Positions 11,506-58,904 of a stretch of DNA of 64,000 nucleotides are shown here, piece by piece (the first letter of the stretch is position 1; each line of letters begins with the position of its first letter). This DNA is from Bacillota bacterium. Lineage in GTDB: Bacteria; Bacillota; Sulfobacillia; Sulfobacillales; Sulfobacillaceae. The stretch spans positions 6 to 64,005 of the forward strand of contig JAJYHT010000031.1 of assembly GCA_021784595.1 (NCBI GenBank), written 5' to 3'. The notes beneath the pieces are model-generated. The model did not search any database and was not told the DNA's origin. It saw only the letters and a program-made list of their open reading frames with translations. The position numbers were made by a program, and so were the translations under genes.

Positions 11506-11545
11506 AAACAGCAGGATGTGCGTGATACAGGGAGGAGGGGTCCTC

Positions 11546-14142: not shown

Positions 14143-14173
14143 CGGTGTAGGAGAGAAAGGGGTAGGCGTATTT

Positions 14174-14954: not shown

Positions 14955-15261
14955 GGGAGCCTCCTTTTGGTCCGTTCCCAGCTGGTGATGTTTGTCTTCT
15001 TGGATTTCACTATACCAACTGGCGATGCCGTCTACAGGGCCCATACGATCCCTCCGTATGCAGAAAAGGACCCCGTTTGATGTGTCCTATCATACGAAGC
15101 CGGGCTCTTGTCGGCGTGGTCCAAAAGGTCCTGAAATTTGGGACCATTGGGTCCATTGTGTTTGGCCTTCTTCAGCATGTATATCCCTGTGTGCCGTTCT
15201 TACTCATGGCGGACATATCTTGTGGGCATTCTGGGAATCATATCCGGCGAGGTGCCCTGCT

Positions 15262-16860: not shown

Positions 16861-17951
16861 AATCACGTAGCCAGTTATTGGCGATTCTCGGGATGGGCTT
16901 GCTGCTGATTGGCATCGCAGGCTGCTGGGATGATGAGCCCGATACCCTTCGCGCCAACGCACTGATTTTAATGGTGTCACACAAGGCCGGTGAAAAATCA
17001 TGGAATTGGCGCTTTTATTTCCCTAATCCCACCGTTACGGTCAGCAGTTTGTCTCAAATCAAGCCGGAGGAAGAATTTTACACCACGTCAGTACAAGCCC
17101 CATCCCTGGAGCAAGCCTACACCCAGGTGCAGCAGCATTTGGCGCGTGATCTATATTTGGGACAACTAGAAGTCGTGATAGTTTCCGATACGCTTACTAC
17201 AAAAGATTTGGCCAGTTTTCTCAATGCGTATAATCGCGAGGGAACGTTGCCCAAAACGGCATATATTTTGGTGGCTTCCTCTCCTTTGTCAAAAATGGCG
17301 GTTGTCACACCGCAAGTATCCATTCCCGCGGTATATTGGGAAAAATACTTTGACTGCAAAGACTGTCAGCCGGAACTTTTGGCGCACCCCATTTGGAAAG
17401 CCTGGGACGATATCGTGACCCCGGACATGTCACCAGCGATACCCTACGCAGGGTTCGATAAAATCGCTCAATTGGCGGTATATCGCAGCGTGGGATCTCC
17501 GGTAATTTTTAGTCGAACTGAAACTTTAGGGTGGGCCTACTTAATGGGAAAGGTCAAAAAAGAGTCTTTAAGCATCATCTCTCCCGTGGGGACCGTTACT
17601 TTAGGGCGCATCCATGGCACAGTTCATAGTCGGGTTGAAGCGGTGAATCAGCATTTGCAGGCGTTTGTCCAGATTCATCTTACAAGCGATGTGGCTCAGT
17701 GGGAATCTTCTGCAGCCATGACCAACAACACTCTGTCCCGTATCCAAACTTTGGCTGAACACCGTGTGTTGTTGGAGTGTATAGCGGCCATTAATAAGGC
17801 CAACATGACACATACCGATCCGTTTGGATATGGGCGGCGGCTGTCATTTGAGCAGGATGGGCCCCCATCTATGGCCCAAGTGCATTGGGAACAGATCGAT
17901 GCGCAAGTATCGGTGACGATGCAAATTCGAACAAGTGGAGGTAATGTCTAA
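16857..17951 (+). CDS. Ger(x)C-family germinant receptor lipoprotein
   Basis: ATGA overlap with gerA. Lipobox LLLIGIAGCWD. Size (364 aa) and position fit a C-subunit. Confidence 0.8.
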   Translation: MKSRSQLLAILGMGLLLIGIAGCWDDEPDTLRANALILMVSHKAGEKSWNWRFYFPNPTVTVSSLSQIKPEEEFYTTSVQAPSLEQAYTQVQQHLARDLYLGQLEVVIVSDTLTTKDLASFLNAYNREGTLPKTAYILVASSPLSKMAVVTPQVSIPAVYWEKYFDCKDCQPELLAHPIWKAWDDIVTPDMSPAIPYAGFDKIAQLAVYRSVGSPVIFSRTETLGWAYLMGKVKKESLSIISPVGTVTLGRIHGTVHSRVEAVNQHLQAFVQIHLTSDVAQWESSAAMTNNTLSRIQTLAEHRVLLECIAAINKANMTHTDPFGYGRRLSFEQDGPPSMAQVHWEQIDAQVSVTMQIRTSGGNV

Positions 17952-17992
17952 CGGGACCTGTCGAGCCAATTTCTAGAGGACAATACTTTTTG

Positions 17993-19063
17993 ATGGTTAC
18001 CGTATCAGTGGTGGCGGGGGGCGTCTATCTTTGGCCGCAGTATGTGGTAAAAGCCGAAGGGACTAATGGGGTCTGGGCGCTGTTGACAACAACAGGTCTA
18101 GCCTTGGGCGTCATGACTTTGCAGGTTCTATGGGTCAAGATGACAAAGAAAACGCCTTATGCTCTCATGGTGCGCGATACTTTGGGCGTGGTGGGATTGT
18201 GGGTGGTAATGCCTGTTACCGGACTGTTTTGTCTGATTATTGATGGCATCTTGCTCTTCTTGTTTGGCGCTATGCTTCATGTCTTTTTTTATCCAATGAC
18301 TCCTGAAATTGTCATGATTGGTACCATTGACGTGGCTGCAGTATGGATTGGCATTCGTACTCTCAGCACGGTTGCACGTAGCATCCAATTTTGGTTTCCC
18401 ATTATTATGGTGTCCCTGGCGATGATTCTTCTTTTTAGTTCCCGCGATATTCGGTTCCTCAGTTCTATAGTACCTACACCAACCTTGGTGGTACCACAAT
18501 GGCTACGGGCAAGTCTAGGAACATGGTTTTTATATGCGAATGGGGCAGTGGTGGCTAGTTTAGCGCCGCATGTTCGATGGCCTGGGCGTGCCAGACCCTT
18601 GCTCTGGACGGGTTTGGCGATTGGATTTCAAGGGAGCATTTTGTTAATTTTATTTGCCATAACGCTGGCCACCTTAGGTGCTCCTGCCGTGGCGCAATTA
18701 CAGTGGCCGATGATTTATGTGTTTTCTTTGGTTAGCGTGCGAACATTTTTTTTTAAAGGAATTGGGATGTTTGTACTGATTACTTGGGCTAGTGCCTTAG
18801 TTCTCTATCTTGCAGTACATCTCTTTTGCTTTTCCTGGAATATCCAAGCCATGGTGGATGCATCATTCAGAGCGCGAAGGTGGATTGTAGTCGCGGCAGG
18901 CGCTGTCGTATTTGGAATCGCGGTATTGATTCCTTCTAGCATTAAGGCTGAACAGCTTTTATTTGGATTAATGAATCCGGTGGACTTAAGTTGGTCATTG
19001 GGCGTGCTGATGTTGTCGGTCATGGTGGCATGGATTCGCAGACGAAGGAGTAAATCGCAATGA
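17993..19063 (+). CDS. spore germination permease, GerAB/GerKB (B-subunit) family
   Basis: ~10-TM protein of 356 aa. Blocks typical of Spore_permease: YPMTPEIVMIG, LQWPMIYVFSLVSV. The A-C-B gene order matches gerK. Confidence 0.8.
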   Translation: MVTVSVVAGGVYLWPQYVVKAEGTNGVWALLTTTGLALGVMTLQVLWVKMTKKTPYALMVRDTLGVVGLWVVMPVTGLFCLIIDGILLFLFGAMLHVFFYPMTPEIVMIGTIDVAAVWIGIRTLSTVARSIQFWFPIIMVSLAMILLFSSRDIRFLSSIVPTPTLVVPQWLRASLGTWFLYANGAVVASLAPHVRWPGRARPLLWTGLAIGFQGSILLILFAITLATLGAPAVAQLQWPMIYVFSLVSVRTFFFKGIGMFVLITWASALVLYLAVHLFCFSWNIQAMVDASFRARRWIVVAAGAVVFGIAVLIPSSIKAEQLLFGLMNPVDLSWSLGVLMLSVMVAWIRRRRSKSQ

Positions 19064-20514
19064 CGGGGAAATGGGTGGTCATCTATACAGGGGTGAACAT
19101 GGCATTGGCGGCCCTGATGGTGATTGGACTGATTCTTGCCTGGCGTTTGGTGGCCATACGTTTAGAACGTGATTTAGGGCACAATCCCAAAGGCACGCTG
19201 TGGGAATTTCTCTTCAGCCTTAGAGCCAACTCTCGAGCAGACTTGGCCTTAACCATGCAGCGGGCGGAACAGGGAAAGCCTGCCGAACATCCTCTAGGAT
19301 CGGCTCCTGATGTCATGTGGCTGGACCACATCGGATTTGATCCCGCCACGTTGCATCCGGTGCCCAAAGATCGCACCACGCCGGTGAATTTGGCGGTGCG
19401 ATTAGGGCCTAAGGCGGCAACTCCGTTGCCGTTGTCGTTGCCGATCCTGATCGCGCCAATGGGATATGGCGTGGGCTTAATCGAGGAGGCGAAGATTGCC
19501 TTGGCTCAGGCGGCCAGTTTAACGGATACCGCAATTGTTAGCGGTGAAGGACCCTTTTTGCCCGAAGAGCGTGCGTTTGCGACCAAATGGGTCTTGCAGT
19601 GGAGTCGAGCTGAATGGGCGCACCAAGAGGCGGTGGTGCAATTGGCGGACATGGTGGAAATCCAAATGGGCCAGGGATCGGAAGTGGGCATTGGCATTGT
19701 TAAAAATCCACTAACCGTGCCTGCACGGGTGGCGGATGCAGCAATGGGGCCAGTGGTTATCCATGCCATTTCACCTCAATCGGTTCCCCGTTGGATTGAA
19801 AAGATTAGGCATATCAAATCAGGTTGTCCAATTGGCATAAAACTTCCGGCCAACCAGCATTTAGAGCAAGATTTGCATCTGGTGACGCAGTGGGGAGTGG
19901 ATGTGATCACATTGGATGGTTCAGCTGCTGGCAGTGCAGGCAGTCCCGCTGTCATTTCGGATCATTTTGGGCTGGATGTGGCGCTGGCCATTCATAGGGC
20001 TCATCGATGGCTCACTCAAGCGGGCGTTCGGCAACAAGTCAGTTTGGTGGCTTCGGGCGGCATTCATGATGCCGCCGACGTGGCTAAAGTCTTGGCATTG
20101 GGGGCCGATGCAGCCGCTATCGGCTCGACCCTCTTATTTGCCTTGAGCCACGAGCAGGTGGCCGAGCATTTGCCGGGTTCGCCGCCCACGGCCGTGGTGA
20201 TGGCGCACGGACAGGCTAGCTCTCCGCCGCAGCTCAATTTGGATAAAGCCAGCGAACATGTCACGGCTTGGTTTGAGGCGACGCGAGCCGAACTGACTTT
20301 GTTGTGCCAGGCTTTGGGTGTGGACTGCATTCAAGATCTTGGTCCCCAGCATCTCGTGGCACGCACTTCTGAAGCTGCCCGTCGATTTGACATCGCCAGC
20401 GATGGAGAACCGGTAAATTGGGGACAGGTGAAAGAAAGCCTCGGTGAGTTGGTAGATCACTACGAAATAGTCAATGATATCTTAGGCCGCGTGGTGCAAA
20501 AAATTCAAACGTAG
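19060..20514 (+). CDS. membrane-anchored FMN-binding glutamate synthase family protein (GltB domain-2 / YerD-like), diverged
   Basis: ATGA overlap with the gerB stop. N-terminal TM helix. The GltS FMN-barrel skeleton is visible (APMGYGVG..SGEGP..MGQGSEVGIG..IGIKLPA..LDGSAAGSAGSP..ASGGIHDAADVAKVLALGAD), but several consensus residues are substituted. Confidence 0.8.
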   Translation: MTGKWVVIYTGVNMALAALMVIGLILAWRLVAIRLERDLGHNPKGTLWEFLFSLRANSRADLALTMQRAEQGKPAEHPLGSAPDVMWLDHIGFDPATLHPVPKDRTTPVNLAVRLGPKAATPLPLSLPILIAPMGYGVGLIEEAKIALAQAASLTDTAIVSGEGPFLPEERAFATKWVLQWSRAEWAHQEAVVQLADMVEIQMGQGSEVGIGIVKNPLTVPARVADAAMGPVVIHAISPQSVPRWIEKIRHIKSGCPIGIKLPANQHLEQDLHLVTQWGVDVITLDGSAAGSAGSPAVISDHFGLDVALAIHRAHRWLTQAGVRQQVSLVASGGIHDAADVAKVLALGADAAAIGSTLLFALSHEQVAEHLPGSPPTAVVMAHGQASSPPQLNLDKASEHVTAWFEATRAELTLLCQALGVDCIQDLGPQHLVARTSEAARRFDIASDGEPVNWGQVKESLGELVDHYEIVNDILGRVVQKIQT

Positions 20515-20547: not shown

Positions 20548-21813
20548 TTAAAGTTTTTCTGCCACGAATTCCGCCAATGGCATTCCCCAGTTGGGAACTT
20601 TCCCGCGAGTGCGAAAAAACAGATCTTTATACTGGTTTTTAAGCAAATAGGGGAGGTTTCCGGTCTTGAGAACTTGTTTCTTTCCTCCGTACCAAGCATC
20701 CGAGTTGATGTAAAACGCTTGATGATGACCCATGTCACCAATGCAGTTGACGCTGGGCTTAAAGGGCAGCGCCCCTTCATCTTTGGATAGTTGGCCCACG
20801 TCCATGGCAATCTGACGGGCCACGACAGCCGCTTGAAGATGGGCAATCCATCCCAGCTTGGGGACTGCCAAAGCCGAGGCATCACCAGCCGACAGAACAT
20901 TCGGATATTTGGGATTGCGCATATTGCGGTCGGTCACGATGAAGCCTTGGTCGTCACTAATAGGCAAACCTTTCAAAAATTGATGAGGAACCCAGTCCGG
21001 GAAGATAATCTTGAGCTCTGCTTCCACGCTGGAGCCATTTTCAAACTCGACGCCCTCTGCGGTCAGGCGTTTGATGTCATGAGTGCGGTTCATGTAGTGA
21101 TAGCCCTTTTTGCTGGCTAAGCTCAGCAACTGGTCAACCACCTCGGCGCCAACGTCCTCAGCAATCATTTCGGCGGGGGTGAAAATAGTGACTTGCTCGG
21201 GACCTTGATATCCGTGCTCTTTGAGCCAACTTCCCATTGACATCCCCATTTCGACCGGCGGTCCCTCGCACGCCGCTTCGGCGGTGGGTACGATGTCAGT
21301 AGTTTGGGTGCCTTGGTGAAACCGGGCCGAGCCGACGGCCACGGGACCGCCTTTATAGTCGTGGAACAGAAAATGGCGCAGACGATTGCCGTAATAGGTG
21401 TCAGTCACGGTGTGACCAAACTCGGCAAAACCCTCTATCTGGTCAAAGGCTAAACGGTTTCCCAACGCGACCACCAGATAGTCATAGTGAATCGAGGTAG
21501 GGGCCGCTCCCGGTCTTTCATTGGGCAGATAATCGACTCGCTGGCTTTCGATGTCGACGGCCTGGACTTGGCCCAAGATGAAGTCGGTTTTGTCCTCATC
21601 CAAGACACCGGCCAGACTCATGTGCAACGATGCTGCCGGATCCCGATTACTTAACGCTTCCAGCCCAATATTGGGCACAAACAAAAGATACGATTTTTGG
21701 TCGATTACACTGATTCGAACAGCATCCCCGGCTAGGGCATGCAATTGCTGAGCAACCTCCAAGCCAGCAAAATTTCCGCCCAATATCACGACATGCGGGG
21801 CTTTTGGCTTCAT
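20548..21813 (-). CDS. sqr: sulfide:quinone oxidoreductase-like FAD-dependent oxidoreductase
   Basis: N-terminal VVILGGNFAGLE dinucleotide fold. Cysteines in AACEGPPVE and SVNCIGDMG sit where SQR redox cysteines are expected. AAGGAG RBS before ATG 21813. Confidence 0.85.
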   Translation of the reverse strand: MKPKAPHVVILGGNFAGLEVAQQLHALAGDAVRISVIDQKSYLLFVPNIGLEALSNRDPAASLHMSLAGVLDEDKTDFILGQVQAVDIESQRVDYLPNERPGAAPTSIHYDYLVVALGNRLAFDQIEGFAEFGHTVTDTYYGNRLRHFLFHDYKGGPVAVGSARFHQGTQTTDIVPTAEAACEGPPVEMGMSMGSWLKEHGYQGPEQVTIFTPAEMIAEDVGAEVVDQLLSLASKKGYHYMNRTHDIKRLTAEGVEFENGSSVEAELKIIFPDWVPHQFLKGLPISDDQGFIVTDRNMRNPKYPNVLSAGDASALAVPKLGWIAHLQAAVVARQIAMDVGQLSKDEGALPFKPSVNCIGDMGHHQAFYINSDAWYGGKKQVLKTGNLPYLLKNQYKDLFFRTRGKVPNWGMPLAEFVAEKL

Positions 21814-22021: not shown

Positions 22022-23416
22022 ATGACGGATGTGGGTTTAGCACGGTTACAGTTTGGTGTTACGACCATTTACCATTTTCTTATTGTTCCTCTAACTATTG
22101 GCACCGCATTGCAACTCGCGATACTAGAAACGCTGTACTGGAAGAATCCGACGCCCAAGAAGCGGGCCTTGCTTGACTTTTTTGGACGTCTGTTTTTAAT
22201 TAACTTTGCGCTCGGCGTGGTCACCGGTATTTTGCAAGAATTCCAATTCGGAATGAACTGGTCCAACTACTCGCGGTTTGTGGGTGATGTGTTTGGCGCT
22301 CCGCTTGCCGTAGAAGCCTTGGCTGCTTTCTTTTTGGAATCGACTTTCATTGCAGTGTGGATTTTTGGATGGGATTGGGTATCTCCTCGGATTCATGTCT
22401 GGTCAATGTGGCTCGTGGCGGTTGGCACCAGCCTTTCGGCATTTTGGATTCTGACCGCCAATTCTTTTATGCAAGAACCCGTTGGCTATATCTTGCGGCA
22501 TGGCCATGCCGAAATGAATAACTTTTTTGGACTGCTGGCCAATCCCCAACTGTGGGTCGAGTTTCCCCATACCGAAGTGGCGGCCTTGGCCACCGGCGCA
22601 TTTTTTGTGGCTGGGATTAGCGCCGTATTTTTACGAAAGGGCGAACACGTGGAAGAATTCCGGTTATCCTTTCGGGTCGCGATTTTAACGGCAGCGGTGA
22701 CCAGCATTTTGGTGGTCATCATAGGGCATGAACAGGCCCAGCACTTGATTGTGGCGCAACCTATGAAGATGGCGGCGTCTGAGGCTCTATACCAAACCAG
22801 TGCGCTTCATGCGCCGTGGACTTTGGTGGCCTGGGTTGATCCAGTGCGTCAAGTGAACCACTGGGTGATTGCAATTCCGTACATGCTGTCTATTCTTGCC
22901 TACAACAGTTTATCGGGGCGGGTCTTAGGAATAAATGCCCTGCAGCGGCTATACGTGCATCGTTATGGTCCGGGATGGTACGTACCGCCGGTGGTGTCAA
23001 CGTTTTGGACGTTTCGCATCATGATCCTGATTGGGTTTGTTATGGCCGGTTTGGCCCTATGGGCGATATGGCTTGAGAACCGCGGGGTTCTTTTGAACTC
23101 GCCCCGTTTTCTTAGAGTCATGACCTGGGCTATTGGGTTGCCATTGCTGGGCAATATTATGGGATGGATTATGACGGAAGTCGGACGACAGCCCTGGATA
23201 GTGTTTGGATTGATGAAAACCGTGCGCGGGGTTTCTCCTACCGTTCCTATGGCTGACGTGTGGATTACGCTCATCGGCTTTGGCGGTTTGTATGGCATTT
23301 TAGGCTATATTGACGTCAAATTGTTGGTGAAATATGTACGGCTTGGTCCCCAGGCAGAGGAACCCGAAGTCACGTCACCCCCGATGTTTCATATCACTAA
23401 TCCCACGGATTCCTAG
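22022..23416 (+). CDS. cydA: cytochrome bd ubiquinol oxidase subunit I (second copy)
   Basis: 464 aa, collinear with the copy at 10111-11505. Identical blocks include LARLQFGVTT, GILQEFQFG and FWILTANSFMQEPVGY. Confidence 0.95.
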   Translation: MTDVGLARLQFGVTTIYHFLIVPLTIGTALQLAILETLYWKNPTPKKRALLDFFGRLFLINFALGVVTGILQEFQFGMNWSNYSRFVGDVFGAPLAVEALAAFFLESTFIAVWIFGWDWVSPRIHVWSMWLVAVGTSLSAFWILTANSFMQEPVGYILRHGHAEMNNFFGLLANPQLWVEFPHTEVAALATGAFFVAGISAVFLRKGEHVEEFRLSFRVAILTAAVTSILVVIIGHEQAQHLIVAQPMKMAASEALYQTSALHAPWTLVAWVDPVRQVNHWVIAIPYMLSILAYNSLSGRVLGINALQRLYVHRYGPGWYVPPVVSTFWTFRIMILIGFVMAGLALWAIWLENRGVLLNSPRFLRVMTWAIGLPLLGNIMGWIMTEVGRQPWIVFGLMKTVRGVSPTVPMADVWITLIGFGGLYGILGYIDVKLLVKYVRLGPQAEEPEVTSPPMFHITNPTDS

Positions 23417-23464
23417 TCGACTGATCGTATAGAGACCGAGAAAATTAAAAGGAGGCATGAGTGA

Positions 23465-24478
23465 ATGCACTTGCCCAGCGTATGGTTTGGATTGATTGCG
23501 GTGTTGTTCGTAGGGTATCTCTTTTTGGAGGGATTCGATTACGGAGTGGGCATTTTGGTGCCGTTTTTAGGGCATACCGACCAAGAGCGGCGTGCCTTGG
23601 TGGCGACCATCGGACCGGTATGGGATGCCAATGAAGTTTGGCTGATTACTGCCGGGGGCGCTATATTCGCGGCCTTTCCTAATTGGTACGCTACCTTGTT
23701 CAGCGGTTTTTATTTGGTGCTGGCGCTGCTCTTGGCAGCCTTAATTATTCGTGGAGTGGCTTTGGAATATCGCTCCAAGGATGATCGACCCAAATGGAGG
23801 GGACGCTGGGATGCTCTGTTGGTGTTTGGAAGCGCCACTCCTGCTTTTGTGTGGGGAGCGGCCATGGGCAATATGTTGCATGGAGTCCCCATCAATGCCC
23901 AGATGAATTATGTGGGAGGGTTCTTCAACTTGCTCAATCCCTATGCCGTGGTTGGGGGGATTGCCTCGCTCCTTCTGTTTACCCTGCATGGGGCGCTGTT
24001 TTTGTCACTGAAGGCGCCACACACCTTGGCTAAACGTGCTGATGAGGCAGCCTTTAAAATTGGCGGCCTGACGACGGTGTTTTATTTTGGATTTGTGGTG
24101 TTGAGCTATTACTTGGCCAACTTGCGGGTGCGGCTCGGTGTGGACCCTGGTCCCATCCCCGTATTGGCGGGGTTTTGCATGATTGCCATTCGTTTTGTGT
24201 TAAAACGCGGACTTCGCGGCTGGGCATTTGCGCTGACCGGCTCCACTATCGTGCTGTCTACTATCAGTGTGTTTTTAACGCTGTATCCCCGGCTTATGAT
24301 CTCGACTTTGAATCCACACTACAGCCTGACCATTTACAACGCGTCGTCCAACCCTTACAGCCTGAAAGTGATGACCATTGTAGCACTCTCGGTATTGCCG
24401 ATAGTGCTTGCCTATCAGATTTGGAGCTATTGGGTGTTTCGTAAGCGAGTCAGTCTGGAGGATACTTTTCACTATTAA
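23465..24478 (+). CDS. cydB: cytochrome bd ubiquinol oxidase subunit II (second copy)
   Basis: LEGFDYGVGILVPFLG, GPVWDANEVWLITAGGAIFAAFP. AAAGGAGG RBS. Confidence 0.92.
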   Translation: MHLPSVWFGLIAVLFVGYLFLEGFDYGVGILVPFLGHTDQERRALVATIGPVWDANEVWLITAGGAIFAAFPNWYATLFSGFYLVLALLLAALIIRGVALEYRSKDDRPKWRGRWDALLVFGSATPAFVWGAAMGNMLHGVPINAQMNYVGGFFNLLNPYAVVGGIASLLLFTLHGALFLSLKAPHTLAKRADEAAFKIGGLTTVFYFGFVVLSYYLANLRVRLGVDPGPIPVLAGFCMIAIRFVLKRGLRGWAFALTGSTIVLSTISVFLTLYPRLMISTLNPHYSLTIYNASSNPYSLKVMTIVALSVLPIVLAYQIWSYWVFRKRVSLEDTFHY

Positions 24479-24515: not shown

Positions 24516-24941
24516 CTACATCTTAACCCCTTGTGGAAGGATGTCAATCGCTTTGGATAGGGCGAGCCCTGCCGCGCCAATCGCCACTGATCGTAGCGAG
24601 GACAGTCGAATGGGAATGTCTTTGTTCATCCACATGGCCCGGTGACGCAAAACCCGATGAATTTCTGGAAGGGTAATGTGAGAGGCTTCCGAAATAGTCC
24701 CGCCGAGATATACGGTGTTAGGATTCAAGGTATTTACCAGATTAGACAATCCGATGCCTAGCGACTCTCCTAGCGATCGTAAGGCAGCCAGATAGGTTTT
24801 TTCTCCGGACCCAGCCCGCTTGACACAGGTCATCACAAAGTCCGGCAAGAATGGTTGGGCAATGATCTCGCCCTGCTCGCTTAAGTAGCGAGCCAAGGCT
24901 TGCTCTGATGCATAAAGCATTTGGATTAAAACATCTTCCAC
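24516..24941 (-). pseudogene. ROK-family regulator/kinase, C-terminal fragment only
   Basis: The 141 aa match only the C-terminal third of ROK proteins (LYASEQAL...LGIGLSNLVNTLNPNTVYLGGTI). There is no N-terminal domain and the fragment abuts a truncated permease. Confidence 0.6.
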
Positions 24942-25426
24942 AGTGGTTTCTAAGCACCCGATTTCTGCCTGCCTGGCATTTGGGGCCGATACAGATCGGG
25001 ATTCCGGTAGCGCTGTTGGCGGTCGTAATCGCTGCCGTGTGGCAGATGTCTGGGTTTGCCATGGCGGTGTATTTAGCCGGACTCCGAGCTATTCCTGAGG
25101 AATTAAAGGAGGCGGCGCGCATTGATGGAGCCGGTCCGTGGCGCGCCTTTTGGTCGGTAATTTTTCCTCAGTTGAAAGGAACCACGGCGACCATCGTGAT
25201 TATTCAAGCGGCAGCATCCATGAAGGTTTTTGGTTTGATTTATGCGATGACTGGACCCGGACAAGACTTTGTGACGGATATGCCCAGCTTGAACATGTTC
25301 CAAACGACCTTTCAAGGCAACGAGTTTGCTCAGGGAGCGGCTATCGCCATCATTTTACTGTTGATCATGGCTGCTTTTACCATTCCCTATTTGATTTCCA
25401 TGGTCAGACAAAGGGGTGACGCATGA
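24908..25426 (+). pseudogene. carbohydrate ABC transporter permease (MalF/UgpA-like), N-terminally truncated
   Basis: Only the C-terminal ~150 aa are present, including the EAA loop (AGLRAIPEELKEAARIDGAGPWRAFWSVIFP). No upstream TM1-3, SBP gene or promoter. Confidence 0.6.
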
Positions 25427-26250
25427 TGATGGCGCTGAGGAGGTTTAATCGAGGTCTCATCTATGTGGTACTGACCCTCGCGGCCTTACTTTATCTCCTG
25501 CCCATATACGTGGTAGTAGTGACCAGTCTAAAGACCAATGCCACTATTAGCCTGCAGCATATGTGGAACTTTCCACTCCATCCTAGTTTTGCCAGTTTGG
25601 CGGCGGCCTGGTCGCAGCTCGCGCCCAACTTTGGAAACAGCTTTTATCTTGCCATTCCAGCTACCCTATTCTCATCGATTTTAGGTGCATTGAATGGCTA
25701 TGTGCTCTCAAAATGGCGGTTCAAAGGGTCCAACATCATCTTCTTTTTAATTTTGTTTGGCCTCTTTATTCCTTACCAGAGTGTTCTAATTCCATTGCTA
25801 AGGATCATGGATACGATCGGGTTATATAACTCGATCCCCGGACTTATTCTGGTGCATACCATTTATGGAATTCCCATTACGACCCTAATTTTCCGGAACT
25901 TTTACGCCTCTATCCCGGACGAAATGCTGGAAGCCGCGAAAATTGACGGGACAGGATATTGGGGAATTTTTCGCTACATGGTGTTGCCGTTGTCAGTCTC
26001 TGGATTTGTGGTGGCTGGCATATGGCAGTTTACCCAGGTGTGGAACAACTTTCTATTTGCGGTCACTCTCACTAATCCCCCAAATCAGCCTGTGACTGTG
26101 GCCTTGGTCAATATTGCCGGCAGCCAGACCATCCAGTGGAATGTTCAGATGGCCAGTGCACTGTTGGCGTCTTTGCCGACGTTGCTGGTCTACATCATTC
26201 TAGGCAAATACTTTGTCCGTGGCTTGCTGGCGGGGTCAGTAAAGGGGTAG
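25423..26250 (+). CDS. carbohydrate ABC transporter permease (MalG/UgpE-like)
   Basis: 275 aa with 6 TM helices. EAA loop FYASIPDEMLEAAKIDGTGYWGIFRYMVLP. ATGA-type overlap with the upstream fragment. Confidence 0.9.
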   Translation: MMMALRRFNRGLIYVVLTLAALLYLLPIYVVVVTSLKTNATISLQHMWNFPLHPSFASLAAAWSQLAPNFGNSFYLAIPATLFSSILGALNGYVLSKWRFKGSNIIFFLILFGLFIPYQSVLIPLLRIMDTIGLYNSIPGLILVHTIYGIPITTLIFRNFYASIPDEMLEAAKIDGTGYWGIFRYMVLPLSVSGFVVAGIWQFTQVWNNFLFAVTLTNPPNQPVTVALVNIAGSQTIQWNVQMASALLASLPTLLVYIILGKYFVRGLLAGSVKG

Positions 26251-26419
26251 CTGGGAGCGGGGATGAAAATCCTGGTCGGCAGATTGGACTGTCCCAGACT
26301 GAGGAATCGAGAAAAAACCTATGCTAACACGGCGGAGGTCAAGATTTCACCTTCGAGCTGCGCAATCCGGGACAGTGTCTGCCATGAACAAAGGCGCAAA
26401 TATAGGCTGAACAATAAAA

Positions 26420-26450
26420 GAGCTTTAGCTTCTCTAAAGCTCGTTCTTCC
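26420..26450 (+). terminator. rho-independent terminator candidate
   Basis: gagctttag-cttct-ctaaagctc: a perfect 9-bp stem followed by gttcttcccttc, with an A-tract upstream. It lies 170 nt after the permease stop. Confidence 0.5.
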
Positions 26451-26784
26451 CTTCATAGGACAAAACGGCATCAAAATTGGGGATTTGCCTTTTAGACTTT
26501 ATACAAAGAGGACAAGTCACCGGGGCAATGTGAAGCGAGTGTGTGGGTTTGCACCCGGGCGCTTAGCTGCTCAATCCGAACCATGGCACGAAGAGAACCC
26601 AACATTAGCGCCAGAACCGTTGGTCCATCACAATTCTCTAGTAAATGAAATGCTTAACCGAACTCATTATCCTGTCTCCTGCTGGATTCCATCCAGTAAT
26701 ACTAGGAGTACAAAATTCTACATAAGTGTTTTGCTGAGGTAGAAGGAATTCCTTAAACGATGAGCGAATATACAGATAAAGCTT

Positions 26785-27462
26785 ATGGAGGTGAAAAATG
26801 AGATGATCCAAGCTGTGAATACAACCGGTTGGGCTTCGCGTGATTTCTTGTTCGCGGCCGCGATACACGAAGCGTGCAATTCTCTAGCCGTTATTAGTGG
26901 ATATAATGAATTGTTCAACCCAGAGAATATAGAAACCTTAAGGCCGTTGCTCGATGATGAAATCGACCGCATTCGGGATATTTTAATGCTTTGCGCAGGA
27001 GGATTTCGAACAGATCGGATGGGTCCCGTTAGTCTCCAGTCGGTGATTGCTACCGTGGTGCAGCATTTGAGGCCGCTATGCGAAGCCAAAGGTATTTGCC
27101 TTTTAGCCGAAGGCCCAGATGCCATCGTTCAAGCCCATCAGTCAGGGCTGGAACAAATCGTGAAAAACCTGGTGGGCAATGCGCTTCGCGAAGTGGGCGC
27201 CGGTGATGCGATTAGTGTGCATACGACGTTAGGTGGTGCCGATGCGAGTATGCGGGTGCACAATACGGGCAGCGCCATCTCGCGCGACCGGCTTGGAGGA
27301 ATTTTTGAGCCGGGATTTACGACGACGCCATTTTCCCACGGTTTGGGCTTAGCCTGGGTAAGATATTTGGTGGAATCGTATGGCGGGACGATTAGTGCGG
27401 CGTCGGATTGCACCGGGACGGAATTTGTGGTCCACCTTCCTGGCGGGACCTCATTGCAATGA
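26785..27462 (+). CDS. small cytoplasmic orphan histidine kinase (HisKA + HATPase_c only)
   Basis: H-box AAAIHEACNSLAVISGY, N-box VKNLVGNALRE, G-boxes VHNTGSAI and HGLGLA. No TM or sensor domain and no adjacent response regulator. Confidence 0.75.
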   Translation: MEVKNEMIQAVNTTGWASRDFLFAAAIHEACNSLAVISGYNELFNPENIETLRPLLDDEIDRIRDILMLCAGGFRTDRMGPVSLQSVIATVVQHLRPLCEAKGICLLAEGPDAIVQAHQSGLEQIVKNLVGNALREVGAGDAISVHTTLGGADASMRVHNTGSAISRDRLGGIFEPGFTTTPFSHGLGLAWVRYLVESYGGTISAASDCTGTEFVVHLPGGTSLQ

Positions 27463-27543: not shown

Positions 27544-28716
27544 TCATGGCATGAGGGGCAGCCAACCGGAAAAGATTTTATAGGCGTGGTTAAAGCAGGC
27601 TTTAGCCAGCGCGGATGAGATCCCGACATGTACCAATTCATGCGACCCTCCATAAAGCCAATCGCTCAGGGTTAATAATCCGCGACCGTAGCCCAGCCAG
27701 CCCACGTGAAGCACATAGGGACGCAATGGGGATGGCCTTTTTCGCTGTTGCACCGCGTAAAAATGGTGGACGGCGGTACGGGCCTGCAGCATGGCCATAT
27801 GTCCGATTTTAGGAAGGGCGGTGGTGCTGATGTCACCCACCGCATAAATATTGGGCCAGGTTCGGTGAGCCCCGTATTGATCGACAGGAATCCATCCATA
27901 TCCGTCATCAATTCCGCTGATGCGTGCTAACCGGGAACCCGGGTAGGGCGGAACCCAAATCATCTTTTCGGATGACAATGGCTTTCGATCGGTAAAGTAA
28001 ATGGCCGAATGACTAACCCGCTCATAGTGTGCATCCGTGACAAGATTAATCTTGCGCTTACAAAGTTCCGTAGCCAAAATCTCTTGGCTTTTGGGCCCCA
28101 AAAATTCACCGGGCACGGGTGCGGGTGTGACCACGGTTATGCTTACGTGGTCGCGCCGTCGTTGTTTTCTGAACCAGGCATCCAAAAGGAAACTGACTTC
28201 GAGTCCGGGTGCGTCCAATGAGCCCACCAGGTGCGGACGATCGGCTGGTGACTGTAGCAATGGACCGATCGCAATCACCAGCGAATGAAAGGGCTGTTGG
28301 ACGCGGTCCCCGGTTTCGCGCGCCAGATAATCCTCGCATACCCCACCATGCTCTGGACCCAGTCCAGGTATGGTCCGCCAACCCTGATCGCTCCCGGTCG
28401 CCACAAAGAGCGTGTCATAGGGCAGTGGAGGATGGCTGGCCAGATAGACGTGTTGCTGTTGCGGATCGATGCGGAAAATGCTGTCGCGGACAAAGTGTTG
28501 TCCTGCCTTCTCGCATCGCCGTTTCATAGCAATATGCCATTGGTCCGCTATGATAGGATGTCCGGCTGCCGCCATTACCAGCGATGGCCTGTAGGTCATA
28601 ACGGTCCACTGGTCTACGACCGTGACCGTTATCTCATGTTGGGAGAAGAGCTTATTGATCCAATAAGATACGGCCGAGCCGGCAAAACGCGCACCGAGAA
28701 TCACCACCTTATGCAT
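27544..28716 (-). CDS. SQR-like FAD-dependent oxidoreductase (type V-like N-terminus), lacking both expected redox cysteines
   Basis: VVILGARFAGSA, GGVCEDY, NIYAVGD. The expected Cys positions read VGSLDAPGLE and LHVGWLGYG. The start overlaps the upstream stop by 8 nt (ATGCATAA). Confidence 0.8.
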   Translation of the reverse strand: MHKVVILGARFAGSAVSYWINKLFSQHEITVTVVDQWTVMTYRPSLVMAAAGHPIIADQWHIAMKRRCEKAGQHFVRDSIFRIDPQQQHVYLASHPPLPYDTLFVATGSDQGWRTIPGLGPEHGGVCEDYLARETGDRVQQPFHSLVIAIGPLLQSPADRPHLVGSLDAPGLEVSFLLDAWFRKQRRRDHVSITVVTPAPVPGEFLGPKSQEILATELCKRKINLVTDAHYERVSHSAIYFTDRKPLSSEKMIWVPPYPGSRLARISGIDDGYGWIPVDQYGAHRTWPNIYAVGDISTTALPKIGHMAMLQARTAVHHFYAVQQRKRPSPLRPYVLHVGWLGYGRGLLTLSDWLYGGSHELVHVGISSALAKACFNHAYKIFSGWLPLMP

Positions 28717-30091
28717 GGCGTGAGTCTACCGCTTGTGGTTGCAGCAGAGTCACCTGGCGCTGAAGGCTAGAAATGAGACGTTGATATTCATCGATCAAAG
28801 CGGTCAATTGGACGGCCAGGCGTCCTTGGGAGGGAGGCTGCGCGGCGGGAATTCCCAATAGTCCGGCGGCTTGATTGGTTCGCGCATAGAGCACGCTCCG
28901 GTCGAGGTCCCCAAGGTCCTCGAGTCCTAAGGATTGCAGGATGACGCGCATATTCTTGGCAGTCGCATCGAACCACCGAGAACCCTGTAGCGCCATCTGT
29001 CCAATGTCGAGAGACGCTTCATTTTCTTGGTTCACCGCCCAGGGCAGGTGGGGACCAATATTGACGGCGTTGGCACCTAATGCCAACAGCTTGACAATGT
29101 CGGCTGCACTTACGATGCCGCCTGAGGCGATAAGGCTAATGTGGGACATGGCGTGCTGATCGATCCAGTCGCGGGCTCGTTTGATAGCGATGGCAGTGGG
29201 GATGCCAAACTGGTCAGACAGGTCTGAATTGCGTTGAGCCTCTGAGCCAGTGACCGTAATGAAATCGGGCGCCCATTGGATTACTGCTGCGAGATCAGTT
29301 TCCAAATGCTGGCTGGCCAGGATCTTTACGCCCACGGGAATGTCCGGATTCCCTCGGCGCAACTGGGACAACAACTGTGGCAGGGAAGAGGCACCCAGGC
29401 CAATAGGGCGTTGATGGGCTGACCAGCGTTTCACACGGAGCGGCAGTCGCTTGTGATTTTTCGCTGGCGTAGTCTTACGACTTTTTTGACCTAGGGAGAC
29501 CTCGGCCATGTCCGCCAGTTGAATCATTTCTCGGCTGGGTCCAGGCTGTCCGAGGTGCCATTGCAGGATCCAGTGTTCGGCATAGGCTCGCTGTGCTGGA
29601 AGGTAGGGGCCTGGCCCCGAAACGACGGCGGACCCTGCAACGCTGGAGATTTGAGCCAAAGCGAGTTTGGCGTCGATAGGAGATCCCATGCTATGGTAGG
29701 GCGCAATAAGCAGTGCAGGTAAGCTAAGGGCCAGCGGACGGCGAGCGCGTGATCCGATAATGGTGGACAGAGAAATCTCCTGAATCTGAGGAGCGGCTTT
29801 GGGATGGAGCGTTGCGGGATCAAAAGCCACTTGGTCGAGCAATGTCCGCCATGGCACTAAGGAGTTGATGGGTTTTAAATGGGTTCTGGATTCGGTTTGC
29901 CATGGGGCGACGTGTACTGTAACCAAAAGATCGTTTAAATTGATCCGAGACCATGACACCGCGAGGCGCTTCATGTTTGGGATGAGAAATCGTGTTGCCA
30001 AAAGTAAAGTGGTGAGGGCCGTTACCAAGCCTGTGATGGCGCCAACTGCCAAAGCCTCTAAAAGCGACACGTCCGCATTCCCCCATTGCAT
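28709..30091 (-). CDS. membrane-anchored FMN glutamate synthase family protein, second and more degenerate copy
   Basis: Paralog of 19060-20514 with the same TM-plus-barrel layout (IASGGIVSAADIVKLLALGANA). The GltS GxxGGTGA block reads TGSEAQRNSD. The start is uncertain: ATG 30091, or TTG 30133 as in the track. Confidence 0.75.
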   Translation of the reverse strand: MQWGNADVSLLEALAVGAITGLVTALTTLLLATRFLIPNMKRLAVSWSRINLNDLLVTVHVAPWQTESRTHLKPINSLVPWRTLLDQVAFDPATLHPKAAPQIQEISLSTIIGSRARRPLALSLPALLIAPYHSMGSPIDAKLALAQISSVAGSAVVSGPGPYLPAQRAYAEHWILQWHLGQPGPSREMIQLADMAEVSLGQKSRKTTPAKNHKRLPLRVKRWSAHQRPIGLGASSLPQLLSQLRRGNPDIPVGVKILASQHLETDLAAVIQWAPDFITVTGSEAQRNSDLSDQFGIPTAIAIKRARDWIDQHAMSHISLIASGGIVSAADIVKLLALGANAVNIGPHLPWAVNQENEASLDIGQMALQGSRWFDATAKNMRVILQSLGLEDLGDLDRSVLYARTNQAAGLLGIPAAQPPSQGRLAVQLTALIDEYQRLISSLQRQVTLLQPQAVDSRHA

Positions 30092-30193
30092 CAACACACC
30101 ATAGGGTTTGCCCAATTTACCCAGTTTATGCAATGTCGGCCTTCTTGCACAATTGGCCCGGTCGCTCTCTGGGATGGAGCGACCGGTTATTTC

Positions 30194-31348
30194 CTAAGGA
30201 TTCAGCTTGGACATGGAAATGCCCCACTGCTTAAACAACGGGGTGTGCACGAACGCATAGGCCAAGGCAGACTTGGCCAGTGGCCACTTACGTCCTACAC
30301 GCAGGTCTTGGTGTTGTTTGGACCATAAAGAGCGCCGCACGAATAAGCCCTGGCCTTTGCCGAGATCCAGCACACAACTCATTTCGTGGTCATATTCTTG
30401 TCGTGGCGCGGAGGAGTCGTTAAGTTCCAATGCGAGATTGTGCGCAGCCACTTCCGATTGCAACATGGCGGTATGCGCTTGTTTTGGTCCCTCAAAGGCG
30501 ACCGCGCTGCCTGTTACATAGACATCAGGATACTGGACGGAACGCATGTCTTTTTCCGTTTGAAGCCAACCGCGGCTTTCGGTTCCCGCGAGTCTGGATT
30601 GAGCGTCTTCGCCGCGAAATGGCGGGGTCACGACCGTGAGCACTGAAGGCAGAACTTGCCCGTCTTTTAAGATGACGCGATCAGCCTGCACCTCTTTCAC
30701 TTGGACCGGACCAAACCGAGTAATCCCACGTTCGGAGAAAATCCTGGTGAGCACTTTGGTGGCCTCAGGTCCAGCGGGAGCCCAGAGCGAAGGTAGGGGA
30801 TCGATGAACTGAATTTTGCCCTCCAGATGATGATGTCTCAACCAAGCTTCGAGTTCTAAGGCCACTTCGAAGGCAGGACCGCCAGTTTGCACAAACTGGG
30901 ACCACCCCACTACAATCGGCCCGCCTTTAAAATGTTCTAGCGCAGATTTCAAAGCTAAGGCGCCGTCGACAGAGCAGACGTTGTAACCATATTGGTTAAG
31001 ACCGGGGATCTCGTCGTAGTTGAGTTTTTCCCCTAACGCAACGATTAGCTTATCATACGTTAAGGAGCCATCGGAGGTGGCGATCATTTTGGAATCGGGA
31101 TCGATGGATTCAATGGTGGTGTGCACAAAGTCAATGCCGACCTTGCGATATATGGGCGCTAAATCGAAAGTAATCGATTGCGGCGACTTTTTTCCAAAAG
31201 CCACCAAAACCAAACTGGGACGGTAAATAAAGACCGGATCCCGAGAAATGACCGTAATGCGATGGTCGGTATTTTTCAATTGCTTCTTTAGTTGCAGGGC
31301 TGCTGTCAGTCCTCCAAATCCGCTTCCCGCAATCACTATATGAGCCAC
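30194..31348 (-). CDS. SQR-like NAD(P)/FAD-dependent oxidoreductase
   Basis: HIVIAGSGFGGLT, NVCSVDG, MSCVLDLG, VYVTGSA. The middle Cys position reads VQTGGPAFE. Start taken at GTG 31348 (AGGAGG 9 nt upstream). The alternative ATG 31366 has no RBS. Confidence 0.8.
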   Translation of the reverse strand: MAHIVIAGSGFGGLTAALQLKKQLKNTDHRITVISRDPVFIYRPSLVLVAFGKKSPQSITFDLAPIYRKVGIDFVHTTIESIDPDSKMIATSDGSLTYDKLIVALGEKLNYDEIPGLNQYGYNVCSVDGALALKSALEHFKGGPIVVGWSQFVQTGGPAFEVALELEAWLRHHHLEGKIQFIDPLPSLWAPAGPEATKVLTRIFSERGITRFGPVQVKEVQADRVILKDGQVLPSVLTVVTPPFRGEDAQSRLAGTESRGWLQTEKDMRSVQYPDVYVTGSAVAFEGPKQAHTAMLQSEVAAHNLALELNDSSAPRQEYDHEMSCVLDLGKGQGLFVRRSLWSKQHQDLRVGRKWPLAKSALAYAFVHTPLFKQWGISMSKLNP

Positions 31349-31521
31349 TGGATTGGTCCTCCTCATGCGATAAATTTGCATCTGCAATAAATATAACGCT
31401 AAGCAGCACGCGAGACATCGGCCAAATGGCGCAAACAACCTTAGTTCAAAAGGATATGGTGTCTTTACGGCTGATGCCGATAAGTTAAGCAAATGGGTGA
31501 TTATCGGGTGAGTTTGATCGT

Positions 31522-32703
31522 CTAGGGCATAATGGGCAATGATCCGTGGCTCCAGACATAGCTGCGCTGAAAAGCGCGCTTAATCCAGGCGGGCCACAAC
31601 CCATGATACAAAATATCGGTTGTGCCGCCGTAGAACATGTTGGTTATCGAAAAGAGCGAGTGGGAGTCGCCCGTTTCCAACATCCATACCAAGTATGGAT
31701 GAAAAGGGGCTGGGAGCTTTCTGTGTTTTTGTTTGGCCAGCCAATGGTGGACTGCCACGCGTGACTGGACCATGGCTGAATGCCCCATCTTGGGCCAAGG
31801 ATGGCTGGTGCCGTCGCCGACCGCATAGATGTTGGGATAACGGACGTGATTCATGTAATTGTTGGTGGGAATCCAACCGTAGCCATCGTCGAGCTTGGTA
31901 TTGGTCAACCAGGAGGGGCCCTTCATGGGTGCAGTCCACACCGAACGGTCATAGGGAACGCGCTCTCCTTTGATAAAGATGTCATGATCGGTGACGCGTT
32001 CAAACTGGACGTTGGTATACACGGTAATATTGCGTTGCGCCATGAGCCGCGTTAGTTGTTGACGAACCCGTGGACTTGAGTTCTCGGCAAGCGAAGATCC
32101 TGCAGTCATTACACTAATTTGCGTTTTGGTGCGAAGCTGTTGCTTGACTAGCCATCGCTCGAATAAAAATGCGCTTTCCAGCAAGGGGCACTCGCAGCCT
32201 ACAGAAATTTTGGGTTCCCATTGAGGAGACCCTATAATCGGCCCGGCGGCAAACACAAAGTGACCTTGGGACCAGCTTTGCCTTTGCCATGCGGTGTGAC
32301 GGGCTTGATAGGCCTCGCAAACCCCGCCTCGGCGCGGACTAAGCCCAGCAATGCGATCCCAGCCTGGTTCGGTGCCGGTGGCCATAAAGAGGACATCATA
32401 CGATATGGGGGGCAGGGTCGCAGTGTAAACTTTTTGCTGGTCTGGATCGATTTGGACAATGATGTCTTGTATTGGGGTAATGCGGAGCTTCTTCCAATGA
32501 CTTGAAAGAGGCATCGTGACTTTTTTGGCAACATTTAAACCCGGTTGGTCCATAGCGTGAACCAATCCGGGTCGATACACCGCATCCTGCCAGCGATCCA
32601 CCACGGTGATATCCAATTCCTCAGCGGGATAAAGGCGGCGCAGCCAACTGGTAATCGCCAGGCCACCAAAGCGGGCTCCCAAAACTACGGCATGCGTTTT
32701 CAT
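31522..32703 (-). CDS. SQR-like FAD-dependent oxidoreductase, paralog of 27544-28716
   Basis: VVLGARFGGLA, GGVCEAY, VGCECPLLES, NIYAVGDG, and the shared C-terminus GSLPIMP. GGGGGAGGG RBS before ATG 32703. Confidence 0.8.
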   Translation of the reverse strand: MKTHAVVLGARFGGLAITSWLRRLYPAEELDITVVDRWQDAVYRPGLVHAMDQPGLNVAKKVTMPLSSHWKKLRITPIQDIIVQIDPDQQKVYTATLPPISYDVLFMATGTEPGWDRIAGLSPRRGGVCEAYQARHTAWQRQSWSQGHFVFAAGPIIGSPQWEPKISVGCECPLLESAFLFERWLVKQQLRTKTQISVMTAGSSLAENSSPRVRQQLTRLMAQRNITVYTNVQFERVTDHDIFIKGERVPYDRSVWTAPMKGPSWLTNTKLDDGYGWIPTNNYMNHVRYPNIYAVGDGTSHPWPKMGHSAMVQSRVAVHHWLAKQKHRKLPAPFHPYLVWMLETGDSHSLFSITNMFYGGTTDILYHGLWPAWIKRAFQRSYVWSHGSLPIMP

Positions 32704-58605: not shown

Positions 58606-58904
58606 AAAACGTCCGATCCTATTCTTTAGGGTGTCATTTGCTATGGTATCAGTCTGTGTGGTAATGCAACAGCTTGAGATTGCCTATTTCTGTTCGGATG
58701 GGGCTCTGGGCGTTTTTTCAATCCTTTGCCGGGCTTGAATAGTGTCCTAACGGACCGATGGACCCTAAGGAGTTTGGGCCAAACGCCTGGTTAATGGGGG
58801 CTGTCGGGACCTGTCATGAAAGAGCAGTGAAATCCTATAATGAGGAAAATATGATATGCGATCACTCATTAACAGCCGGAACAATGGGCAGAGGGAGAAA
58901 GAAA

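Follow-up and report, generated by a model that had tools for sequence, protein, structure and literature searches.

SQR-fold flavoproteins lacking the sulfide:quinone oxidoreductase redox pair and their GltS-like gene partners, often in germinant-receptor operons, in Sulfobacillaceae

The window analyzed here is a 64,000-nucleotide stretch of contig JAJYHT010000031.1 from a Bacillota genome of the Sulfobacillaceae (assembly GCA_021784595.1). Four consecutive minus-strand genes in the window encode, in order of transcription, two flavoproteins with the fold of sulfide:quinone oxidoreductase (SQR; genes A and B), a membrane-anchored protein with the flavin mononucleotide (FMN) domain of glutamate synthase (GltS; gene G), and a third SQR-fold flavoprotein (gene C; coordinates in Table 1). 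An earlier annotation made without database searches (the sequence-only reading) had described this cluster as three SQR-like proteins with incomplete cysteine sets plus a degenerate GltS-like protein. All four open reading frames (ORFs) that it listed are present, and they are also called as genes in the metagenome-assembled genome (MAG) GCA_027418305.1 (contig DAIBND010000096.1) and in two independent metagenome assemblies. Comparative analysis of these genes indicates that none of the three flavoproteins is a canonical SQR, that A and C belong to one discrete family, and that members of this family form a conserved unit with GltS-like genes, which in many genomes stand at the end of a germinant-receptor operon.

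A, B, and C each match the Pfam family Pyr_redox_2. Their best NCBIfam model is SQR_III (SQR_III_seleno), the sole SQR model to match in that library, at 124–137 bits compared to a cut-off of 525. The 8-nt overlap reported between G and C was confirmed (ATGCATAA), with the start of C overlapping the stop codon of G. If the TTG at 30133 is used as its start, the G protein has 474 residues. Upstream of A are a candidate sigma-A-like promoter (TTGTTC-N18-TATAAT) and a ribosome-binding site (GGGGAGG). A generic promoter and terminator scan of the cluster performed no better than on shuffled sequence. The spacer between B and G contains a hairpin, which may serve as a transcript boundary or stabilizer between the A-B and G-C units. 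Its T-run lies on the plus-strand side only, and its role for minus-strand genes is uncertain.

Among solved structures, the SQR of Acidianus ambivalens (3h8i/3h8l) matches A and B best (HMMER E-values of 1e-32 for A and 3e-38 for B), and the HMMER matches of the flavoproteins also include 3hyv and 3t2y. The A. ambivalens enzyme has cysteines at positions 129, 178, and 350 only, and its Cys178 and Cys350 correspond to the redox pair Cys160 and Cys356 of A. ferrooxidans. At these three positions, A has C/C/W (GGV[C]EAY, VG[C]ECPL, and YLV[W]MLE), B has C/T/C (YNV[C]SVD, VQ[T]GGPA, and EMS[C]VLD), and C has C/L/H (GGV[C]EDY, GS[L]DAPG, and YVL[H]VGW). In its own numbering, A carries Cys129 (the Cys129 equivalent), Cys170-Glu-Cys172, and Trp340 in place of Cys350, and ends in LPIMP. 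C keeps the Cys129 equivalent, has SLDAP at 178 and His at 350, and ends in LPLMP. The by-eye assignment of the first and second cysteines to A, the first and third to B, and the first alone to C is exactly what HMMER pairwise and MAFFT alignments return, and the separate SQR gene at 20548-21813 has the T/C/C pattern (V[T]D, A[C]EGP, and VN[C]IGD), with the second and third cysteines that had been attributed to it. The alignment also shows the LGARFxG N-terminus and LP[IL]MP C-terminus common to A and C; the second cysteine of the A motif (CxC) had been overlooked. Since A, B, and C each lack the Cys178 and Cys350 pair, conventional SQR chemistry is unlikely for them, as had been proposed, and they are not canonical SQRs.

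The substitutions at the redox pair are invariant or nearly so within the subfamily to which each protein belongs. A search with A retrieved about 45 close homologues, after which the score falls from 217 to 92 bits; these derive from Sulfobacillus thermosulfidooxidans, S. thermotolerans, S. harzensis, S. benefaciens, Thermaerobacter-like MAGs, and other Bacillota MAGs. An exhaustive profile search of 1.84 billion representatives gave about 16 A/C-family representatives above 300 bits. The Cys350 equivalent is absent from every near-full-length A/C member aligned from either search, and the next tier below the family consists of Acidianus-like SQRs of 404–410 residues with all three cysteines. 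Given this next tier, the discrete A/C family, no checked member of which has Cys350, derives from the three-cysteine type V SQRs.

The A/C family comprises two main subfamilies and a few intermediate forms, with a general LP(I/V)MP tail. A-type proteins have the first cysteine, the CxC motif, Trp at 350, and an LPIMP tail, and their G-C-E-C-P motif is invariant in 16 aligned sequences and near-universal among about 30 listed. C-type proteins have the first cysteine, SLDAP, His at 350, and a WMPIMP tail. The Cys129 equivalent, a putative anchor for flavin adenine dinucleotide (FAD), is present in A, B, and C and kept in at least 90% of the A/C family. The B subfamily is specific to Sulfobacillus (about 21 clusters), and most of its members have exactly two cysteines. 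Its invariant motifs V-C, VQ-T-GGPAF, and HEMS-C-VLDLG retain the Cys129 and Cys350 equivalents and lack that of Cys178, and B has the canonical FAD motif GSGFGG. Compared to their own subfamilies, A, B, and C depart at only 4–6 of 120–199 conserved columns and are ordinary members. The missing-cysteine patterns are thus subfamily hallmarks and not random decay.

An AlphaFold2 model of C (predicted local distance difference test, pLDDT, 94.8) has its best PDB matches in the SQRs of A. ferrooxidans and Aquifex, with a template modeling (TM) score of 0.86. The features described for the quinone channel of SQR are apolar residues beside the third cysteine and, in the first C-terminal helix, an aromatic residue (PMC9666304). 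By alignment, position 350 has apolar flanks (V-W-M in A and L-H-V in C), and the C-terminal helix shows conservation of K375, F378, and Y382. A second-domain GxGxxG motif for NAD(P)H was sought in the three sequences and is absent (VFAAGPIIGSP in A, VIAIGPLLQSP in C, and VVGWSQFVQTGG in B), and an identity as type II NADH dehydrogenase (NDH-2) was rejected on this ground.

The partner protein belongs to a family of small GltS-like membrane proteins, and the window encodes a second, intact paralogue, G2, which the sequence-only reading did not mention. G and G2 match Glu_synthase (PF01645) at 71.7 and 142.7 bits, respectively (cut-off 20.4). The model of G2 (pLDDT 84) consists of an N-terminal helix (residues 2–39) followed by an FMN-binding TIM barrel. 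Its nearest structural neighbors are GltS FMN domains, followed by the alpha-hydroxy-acid oxidases flavocytochrome b2 and glycolate oxidase. The amidotransferase, central, and beta-helix domains of GltS are absent from both proteins (460–484 residues), which comprise only a transmembrane helix and the TIM barrel. The lysine of the GltS motif GAKPGEGG is a ligand of 2-oxoglutarate, and it is replaced in both G2 (GQGSE) and G (GQKSR). The domain content and the missing lysine rule out a genuine glutamate synthase. Inspection of the G and G2 sequences revealed no iron-sulfur cysteine or cysteine-rich motif. Distant homologues with 32–39% identity to G2 adjoin genes for a small cytochrome c and a COX1-family protein, resembling NorCB, in Desulfosporosinus lacus (L026, 5089-8404) and in Sporomusa rhizae (L027, 4934-9932), where two copies are in tandem. 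Here again, the neighbors of the family are membrane redox enzymes.

Across 29 members of the GltS-like clade of Sulfobacillus and relatives, 128 columns are conserved at 85% or more, among them PMGYG, SGEGP, GQGSE, and DGxxAGSxGSPAVISDHFG. G departs from 41 of these columns, compared to 7 in G2 and 0–12 in the others. Its changes include PMGYG to PYHSMG, SGEG to SGPG, and GQGSE to GQKSR, together with the loss of three residues from the DGxxAGSxGSPAVISDHFG loop and a deletion of about 24 residues. The loop that corresponds to the GGTGA block reads TGSEAQRNSD with the 3-residue deletion, so that the reported destruction of this block is real. G is 41–44% identical to its orthologues compared to 58–63% for C of the window, whereas G and C orthologues from other genomes diverge in step (60/63, 57/56, and 51/52% identity). 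In a neighbor-joining tree, the branch of G is about twice the length of those of its orthologues. G is a degenerate copy; because it nevertheless retains 18 family-invariant residues and an intact ORF, it is either a decaying enzyme or a pseudo-enzyme. Pseudogenization of all four genes was also considered; it was rejected for A, B, and C on the basis of their conserved columns and is credible for G only.

Gene neighborhoods were compared across loci (designated by L numbers), of which 17 were recovered by scanning a single genome for each GTDB species and the others by exact-protein look-ups. The scan was keyed on A-type sequences only; a mixed alignment of A and C types has no conserved stretch of 7–10 residues, and C-type loci were gathered one by one. 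Of the 19 informative loci, 15 have a GltS-like gene near an A- or C-type flavoprotein gene, directly adjacent in 14 and no more than 5 kb away in the other. In 13 of those 15, the germinant-receptor genes gerAA-gerAC-gerAB lie directly upstream of the GltS-like gene, which is then the fourth gene of the operon. Further contexts agree (L028, L030, L031, and L032, including S. thermotolerans, Hydrogenisulfobacillus, and S. harzensis), and 11 contigs are common to the lists of A homologues and GltS-like homologues. C-type genes follow the GltS-like gene in the same direction, with the same 8-nt overlap in L021 (S. thermosulfidooxidans), L028, and L030 (S. thermotolerans) and a longer called overlap in L022. 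A-type genes are convergent with the GltS-like gene, and in this arrangement a UbiE-like methyltransferase gene directly follows the latter (L007-L018, L024, L031, and L032). A lone UbiE/COQ5-family methyltransferase gene is also found in the window (62970-63797, minus strand), about 43 kb from G2 and 43% identical to the ger-operon one. The gerAB and GltS-like genes overlap in the window, L022, L024, L031, and L032, where the GltS-like proteins are only 45–55% identical. In the window, the ger operon continues into the intact G2 (14992-20514), which overlaps gerAB by 4 nt (ATGA), and is followed by the true SQR gene and cydAB. The sequence-only reading had likewise passed over the germinant-receptor context. 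The gerAA ORF (TTG at 14992) is probably over-extended: its GerA domain starts only at residue 138, and a ribosome-binding site accompanies an ATG at about 15263.

The two types of flavoprotein are matched by two types of GltS-like protein. In a neighbor-joining tree, GltS-like proteins linked to C-type and to CxC-type flavoproteins form separate clades, with G in the first and G2 in the second. The distance matrices of the GltS-like proteins and flavoproteins are correlated (r = 0.79, or 0.89 without G of the window; Mantel p ~5e-4). The clade split is the stronger argument because shared species history contributes to the correlation. A GltS-like gene with an A- or C-type flavoprotein gene is accordingly a conserved unit that has co-diversified. 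The sequence-only reading had cast the GltS-like protein as a non-catalytic partner: the gene partnership stands and this copy is degenerate, but the label does not extend to the family, since the orthologues and G2 keep their motifs. The four-gene cluster as a whole is lineage-specific. The A-B-G-C arrangement occurs only in near-identical contigs, so that the cluster lacks the conservation in related genomes on which the earlier proposal had staked itself, and only the closest relatives, L004 and L006 (S. benefaciens AMDSBA4), have A next to B. The order in AMDSBA4 is A, B, cydBA, SQR, G2, and gerAB, and in the window the G-C pair is inserted between B and cydB.

Table 1. Genes and features of the cluster and of the ger-GltS region in the window.
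Feature	Position	Strand	Description
A	31522-32703	minus	393-aa SQR-fold flavoprotein; LPIMP-tail family, CxC subfamily
B	30194-31348	minus	384-aa SQR-fold flavoprotein; Sulfobacillus-specific subfamily
Hairpin	30158-30186		11-bp, GC-rich; directly after the B stop codon, in the B-G spacer
G	28709-30091	minus	460-aa membrane-anchored GltS-FMN-domain protein, degenerate; clade pairing with C-type flavoproteins
C	27544-28716	minus	390-aa SQR-fold flavoprotein; LPIMP-tail family, cysteine-less subfamily
gerAA-gerAC-gerAB operon	14992-19063	plus	gerAA matches Pfam GerA at 460 bits
gerAC	16857-17951	plus	Spore_GerAC_N and Spore_GerAC
gerAB	17990-19063	plus	Spore_permease
G2	19060-20514	plus	Intact 484-aa membrane GltS-FMN-domain protein, paralogue of G; clade pairing with A-type (CxC) flavoproteins
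SQR	20548-21813	minus	Conventional-looking SQR; Cys178 and Cys350 equivalents, Thr at 129
cydA and cydB	22022-24478	plus	Cytochrome bd quinol oxidase

The genes for cytochrome bd recur beside the flavoprotein or ger-GltS module, being found in the window, L005, L006, L017, L018, L021, and L031. The window has a second cydAB operon (10111-12553, plus strand), and the two lie within 14 kb, on either side of the ger-GltS operon. Directly upstream of the ger operon (12760-14827, plus strand) are genes for a GAF-HisKA_3-HATPase kinase and a LuxR/NarL regulator resembling DevS/DevR. A kinase and LuxR regulator pair also flanks the ger-GltS operon in L024, and this DosS/DosR-like pair was not found beside the module in S. 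harzensis, S. thermosulfidooxidans, or Hydrogenisulfobacillus. Between cydB and C (24516-27462) is a run of apparently truncated genes, comprising a C-terminal fragment of a ROK protein (141 aa), a BPD_transp_1 permease of 172 aa followed by a full one, an unassigned 159-aa ORF, and a protein of 225 aa that contains just the HATPase_c end of a histidine kinase. These look like rearrangement scars at the site of the G-C insertion.

B has a different set of neighbors. In hosts that include S. thermosulfidooxidans and S. thermotolerans, B is followed by an SQR of the 20548-21813 type (62–63% identical) and a DUF1641 gene (PF07849; L028, 10001-13559; L029, 8001-11582; L030, 13541-17155), a trio that is broken up in the window. 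A TauE/SafE exporter gene is located beside the GltS-like and flavoprotein pair at three loci (L024, 8146-8943; L028, 5437-6156; L030, 10652-11383) and a rhodanese gene at one (L023, 5733-6818). The other loci have TauE, DUF1641, rhodanese, and glycosyl-hydrolase genes as neighbors; a search of the window found none of these. The window also encodes a 515-aa protein with Pyr_redox_2 and Pyr_redox_dim domains (58758-60305, plus strand), which is of the disulfide-reductase class, has an N-terminal extension of about 50 residues, and is unrelated to the cluster.

The explanation that we prefer, with confidence somewhat short of even, is that the cluster would be a lineage-specific juxtaposition of three conserved units, with no single dedicated four-gene system, and that the A/C flavoproteins and GltS-like proteins would form a two-flavin, quinone-linked module. 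A and C would be paralogues in a Sulfobacillus-centered family that has kept the SQR fold, the putative FAD-anchoring cysteine, and the apolar residues of the quinone channel, and each subfamily would be coupled to its own GltS-like clade, G with C through the 8-nt overlap and G2 with A in convergent orientation. The ancestral place of the GltS-like gene would be fourth in the gerAA-gerAC-gerAB operon, often with a UbiE-like methyltransferase gene after it and cydAB alongside. The pair may constitute an FMN/FAD membrane oxidoreductase, loosely similar to the alpha(FMN)/beta(FAD) protomer of NADPH-glutamate synthase, in which a small substrate other than 2-oxoglutarate would be turned over at the FMN site and the SQR-derived subunit would link this site to the quinone pool and cytochrome bd without oxidizing sulfide. 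Given the translational coupling between the FMN gene and gerAB, synthesis of the module probably accompanies that of the germinant receptor, and its site of action may be the inner membrane of the spore as it germinates or grows out.

In this genome, the G-C pair would have become detached from the ger operon and inserted beside A-B. Since G has decayed while C appears to be under normal constraint, C probably now relies on the intact G2 or acts alone. B would be a separate two-cysteine derivative of SQR that may still handle sulfur species through its Cys129/Cys350-type pair, and a sulfur-related function is plausible for B given the two conserved cysteines and the true SQR as neighbor, and conceivable for A in view of its CxC motif. 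We infer the physical interaction, quinone coupling, substrate, and spore role of the A/C and GltS-like pair, with the germination role drawn from operon structure alone.

Several observations weigh against this two-flavin module. The A-type gene has no GltS-like neighbor in four loci (L005, L009, L014, and L020), and in L023 and L028 the pair has no ger genes with it, which makes the ger link frequent and not obligatory. As iron-sulfur motifs are missing, transfer from FAD to FMN would need direct proximity of the flavins. A carries a sigma-A-like promoter, and a scan for sigma-G, sigma-F, and sigma-A promoter patterns upstream of gerAA at 11 loci gave, for the sigma-G consensus, one strict match about 50 nt upstream in L021, one relaxed match about 60 nt upstream in L031, and none in the window; forespore expression of the module is accordingly no more than possible. 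The TauE and rhodanese neighbors (L023, L024, L028, and L030) hint that a sulfur-related substrate is possible, and the distant GltS-like homologues adjoin NorCB-like genes and not ger genes.

Sulfur oxidation could instead persist in A and B through relocated cysteines, namely a Cys170-x-Cys172 disulfide in A and the Cys129/Cys350-type pair in B, with only C inert to sulfur and with sulfide, persulfides, polysulfide, or thiosulfate as candidate substrates. This is unlikely, although the CxC motif of A and both cysteines of B are strictly conserved in their subfamilies, the hosts are sulfur oxidizers (Sulfobacillus has many SQR paralogues; PMC4378227), rhodanese and TauE genes accompany some family members, and B stands beside a true SQR. 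The second and third SQR cysteines are essential according to Justice et al. (PMC4378227), and the flavin-proximal one is found in none of the A/C members checked. Moreover, the C subfamily lacks both cysteines and has the same gene partner and the same tail, which argues for a cysteine-independent function shared by the family.

An extension of the proposed two-flavin module, which we consider rather doubtful, is that the GltS-like protein and its SQR-derived partner would be accessory subunits of a GerA-type germinant receptor in Sulfobacillus and its relatives, either converting a germinant or coupling the receptor to the redox state of the spore membrane (quinone pool and cytochrome bd). 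If true, germination of these acidophilic chemolithotrophs would be gated by a redox or metabolic signal and not by nutrient binding alone.

The pair may also be a vegetative enzyme, either a respiratory dehydrogenase or a hypoxia or nitric oxide stress enzyme feeding cytochrome bd, with its position after the ger genes a syntenic accident passed down in a single lineage. Such a role would suit the recurrent cydAB adjacency, the NorCB-like cytochrome c and COX1 genes beside distant GltS-like homologues, the presence of a GAF-HisKA_3 kinase and a LuxR regulator beside this operon both in the window and in L024, the sigma-A-like promoter of A, and the pairs without ger genes in L023 and L028. 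However, the stop overlap between gerAB and the GltS-like gene is present in lineages whose GltS-like proteins share only 45–55% identity and would be hard to keep without co-expression, and we regard this role as improbable.

Two further possibilities can be set aside as very improbable. The idea that the four genes, SQR paralogues and GltS-like gene alike, are decaying remnants that no longer have a function would account for the 41 of 128 conserved positions lost by G, its long branch, and the truncated ROK, ABC-permease, and histidine-kinase fragments just downstream (24516-27462), but A, B, and C are ordinary members of their subfamilies (4–6 departures from 120–199 columns), none of the ORFs is disrupted, C is modeled with very high confidence, and the motifs are invariant across species. 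Equally improbable is the hetero-oligomer put forward by the sequence-only reading, in which A, B, and C would rebuild the SQR persulfide relay from complementary cysteines with the GltS-like protein as an inert membrane anchor: all three positions are represented across three co-directional and closely spaced genes, but the three are not conserved together (A-B-G-C occurs only in near-identical contigs and A-B adjacency only in L004 and L006), B normally adjoins a true SQR, A- and C-type genes are widespread without B nearby, a hairpin separates B from G, and the SQRs of known structure carry both the Cys178 and the Cys350 equivalent on a single subunit, at one face of the FAD.

These findings bear on the annotation of sulfur metabolism in Sulfobacillus. 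Justice et al. reported 74 SQR-like proteins in Sulfobacillus, of which only the 36 with the second and third cysteines were analyzed and 38 were set aside (PMC4378227). Other Sulfobacillus genome papers list conventional sqr genes only, and the SQR copy counts in such papers feed reconstructions of sulfur oxidation. In public databases, B and C family members are labeled ‘sulfide:quinone oxidoreductase’, others ‘NAD(P)/FAD-dependent oxidoreductase’, and the GltS-like proteins ‘FMN-binding glutamate synthase family protein’. Since at least part of the set-aside SQR-like proteins, which lacked those two cysteines, form coherent families with their own motifs and partners, the sulfide-oxidation capacity of bioleaching organisms may be over-counted. 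The small A/C family, which has an SQR scaffold and the putative FAD-anchoring cysteine, seems to retain the quinone channel, and lacks the flavin-proximal cysteine, is a natural experiment in the repurposing of SQR.

The link to ger operons is unexpected for germination biology, as many genomes show translational coupling of a flavoenzyme gene to gerAB, and it offers a testable handle on the germination decision in spores of acidophilic chemolithotrophs. The literature searched contained no GltS-like or SQR-like genes in ger operons, no enzyme-containing ger operon, and nothing relevant on germination transcriptomics of Sulfobacillus, and expression data for these genes are absent from the supplements of PMC6315122. 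The literature search also found no description of a system with the composition of the cluster, in agreement with the sequence-only reading. What is new is the gene partnership and operon context of known flavoprotein folds, which we found described nowhere.

Compared to known systems, the A/C proteins are closest to the type V SQR of A. ambivalens. A and C share its unusual GxRFG motif for FAD, the fold is the same (TM scores of 0.74–0.86 to SQRs), the FAD-anchoring Cys129 is kept, the type V enzyme is the best sequence match for A and B, and the nearest tier outside the A/C family consists of three-cysteine SQRs of similar size. On the other hand, the A/C members checked all lack Cys350, and Cys178 is replaced in C, extended to CxC in A, and substituted by Thr in B. 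The A/C proteins also add the LP(I/V)MP C-terminus and invariant His286 and His308, and they have an obligate-looking GltS-like gene partner, which described SQRs do not have. NDH-2 has the same fold (TM score of about 0.77) and is also a monotopic, quinone-reducing enzyme without redox cysteines, although the sequence similarity of the flavoproteins to it is much weaker than to SQRs.

The alpha-beta protomer of NADPH-GltS likewise combines a PF01645 FMN TIM barrel with a separate FAD protein that has two dinucleotide-binding domains. In contrast, the G-type protein is a single barrel anchored in the membrane by an N-terminal helix, and its FAD partner is of SQR type without the NAD(P)H motif. 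The extra gene of the tetracistronic ger operon of Clostridium reportedly encodes another receptor subunit and not an enzyme. That operon, from a study of Clostridium botulinum/sporogenes, is the only four-gene ger operon found in the literature search (PMC4161481). The operon in the window has the GerA, GerAC, and Spore_permease genes in the tight arrangement typical of GerA-family operons, but here the operon overlaps into a GltS-like gene, usually followed by a gene for a UbiE-like methyltransferase or an SQR-like flavoprotein.

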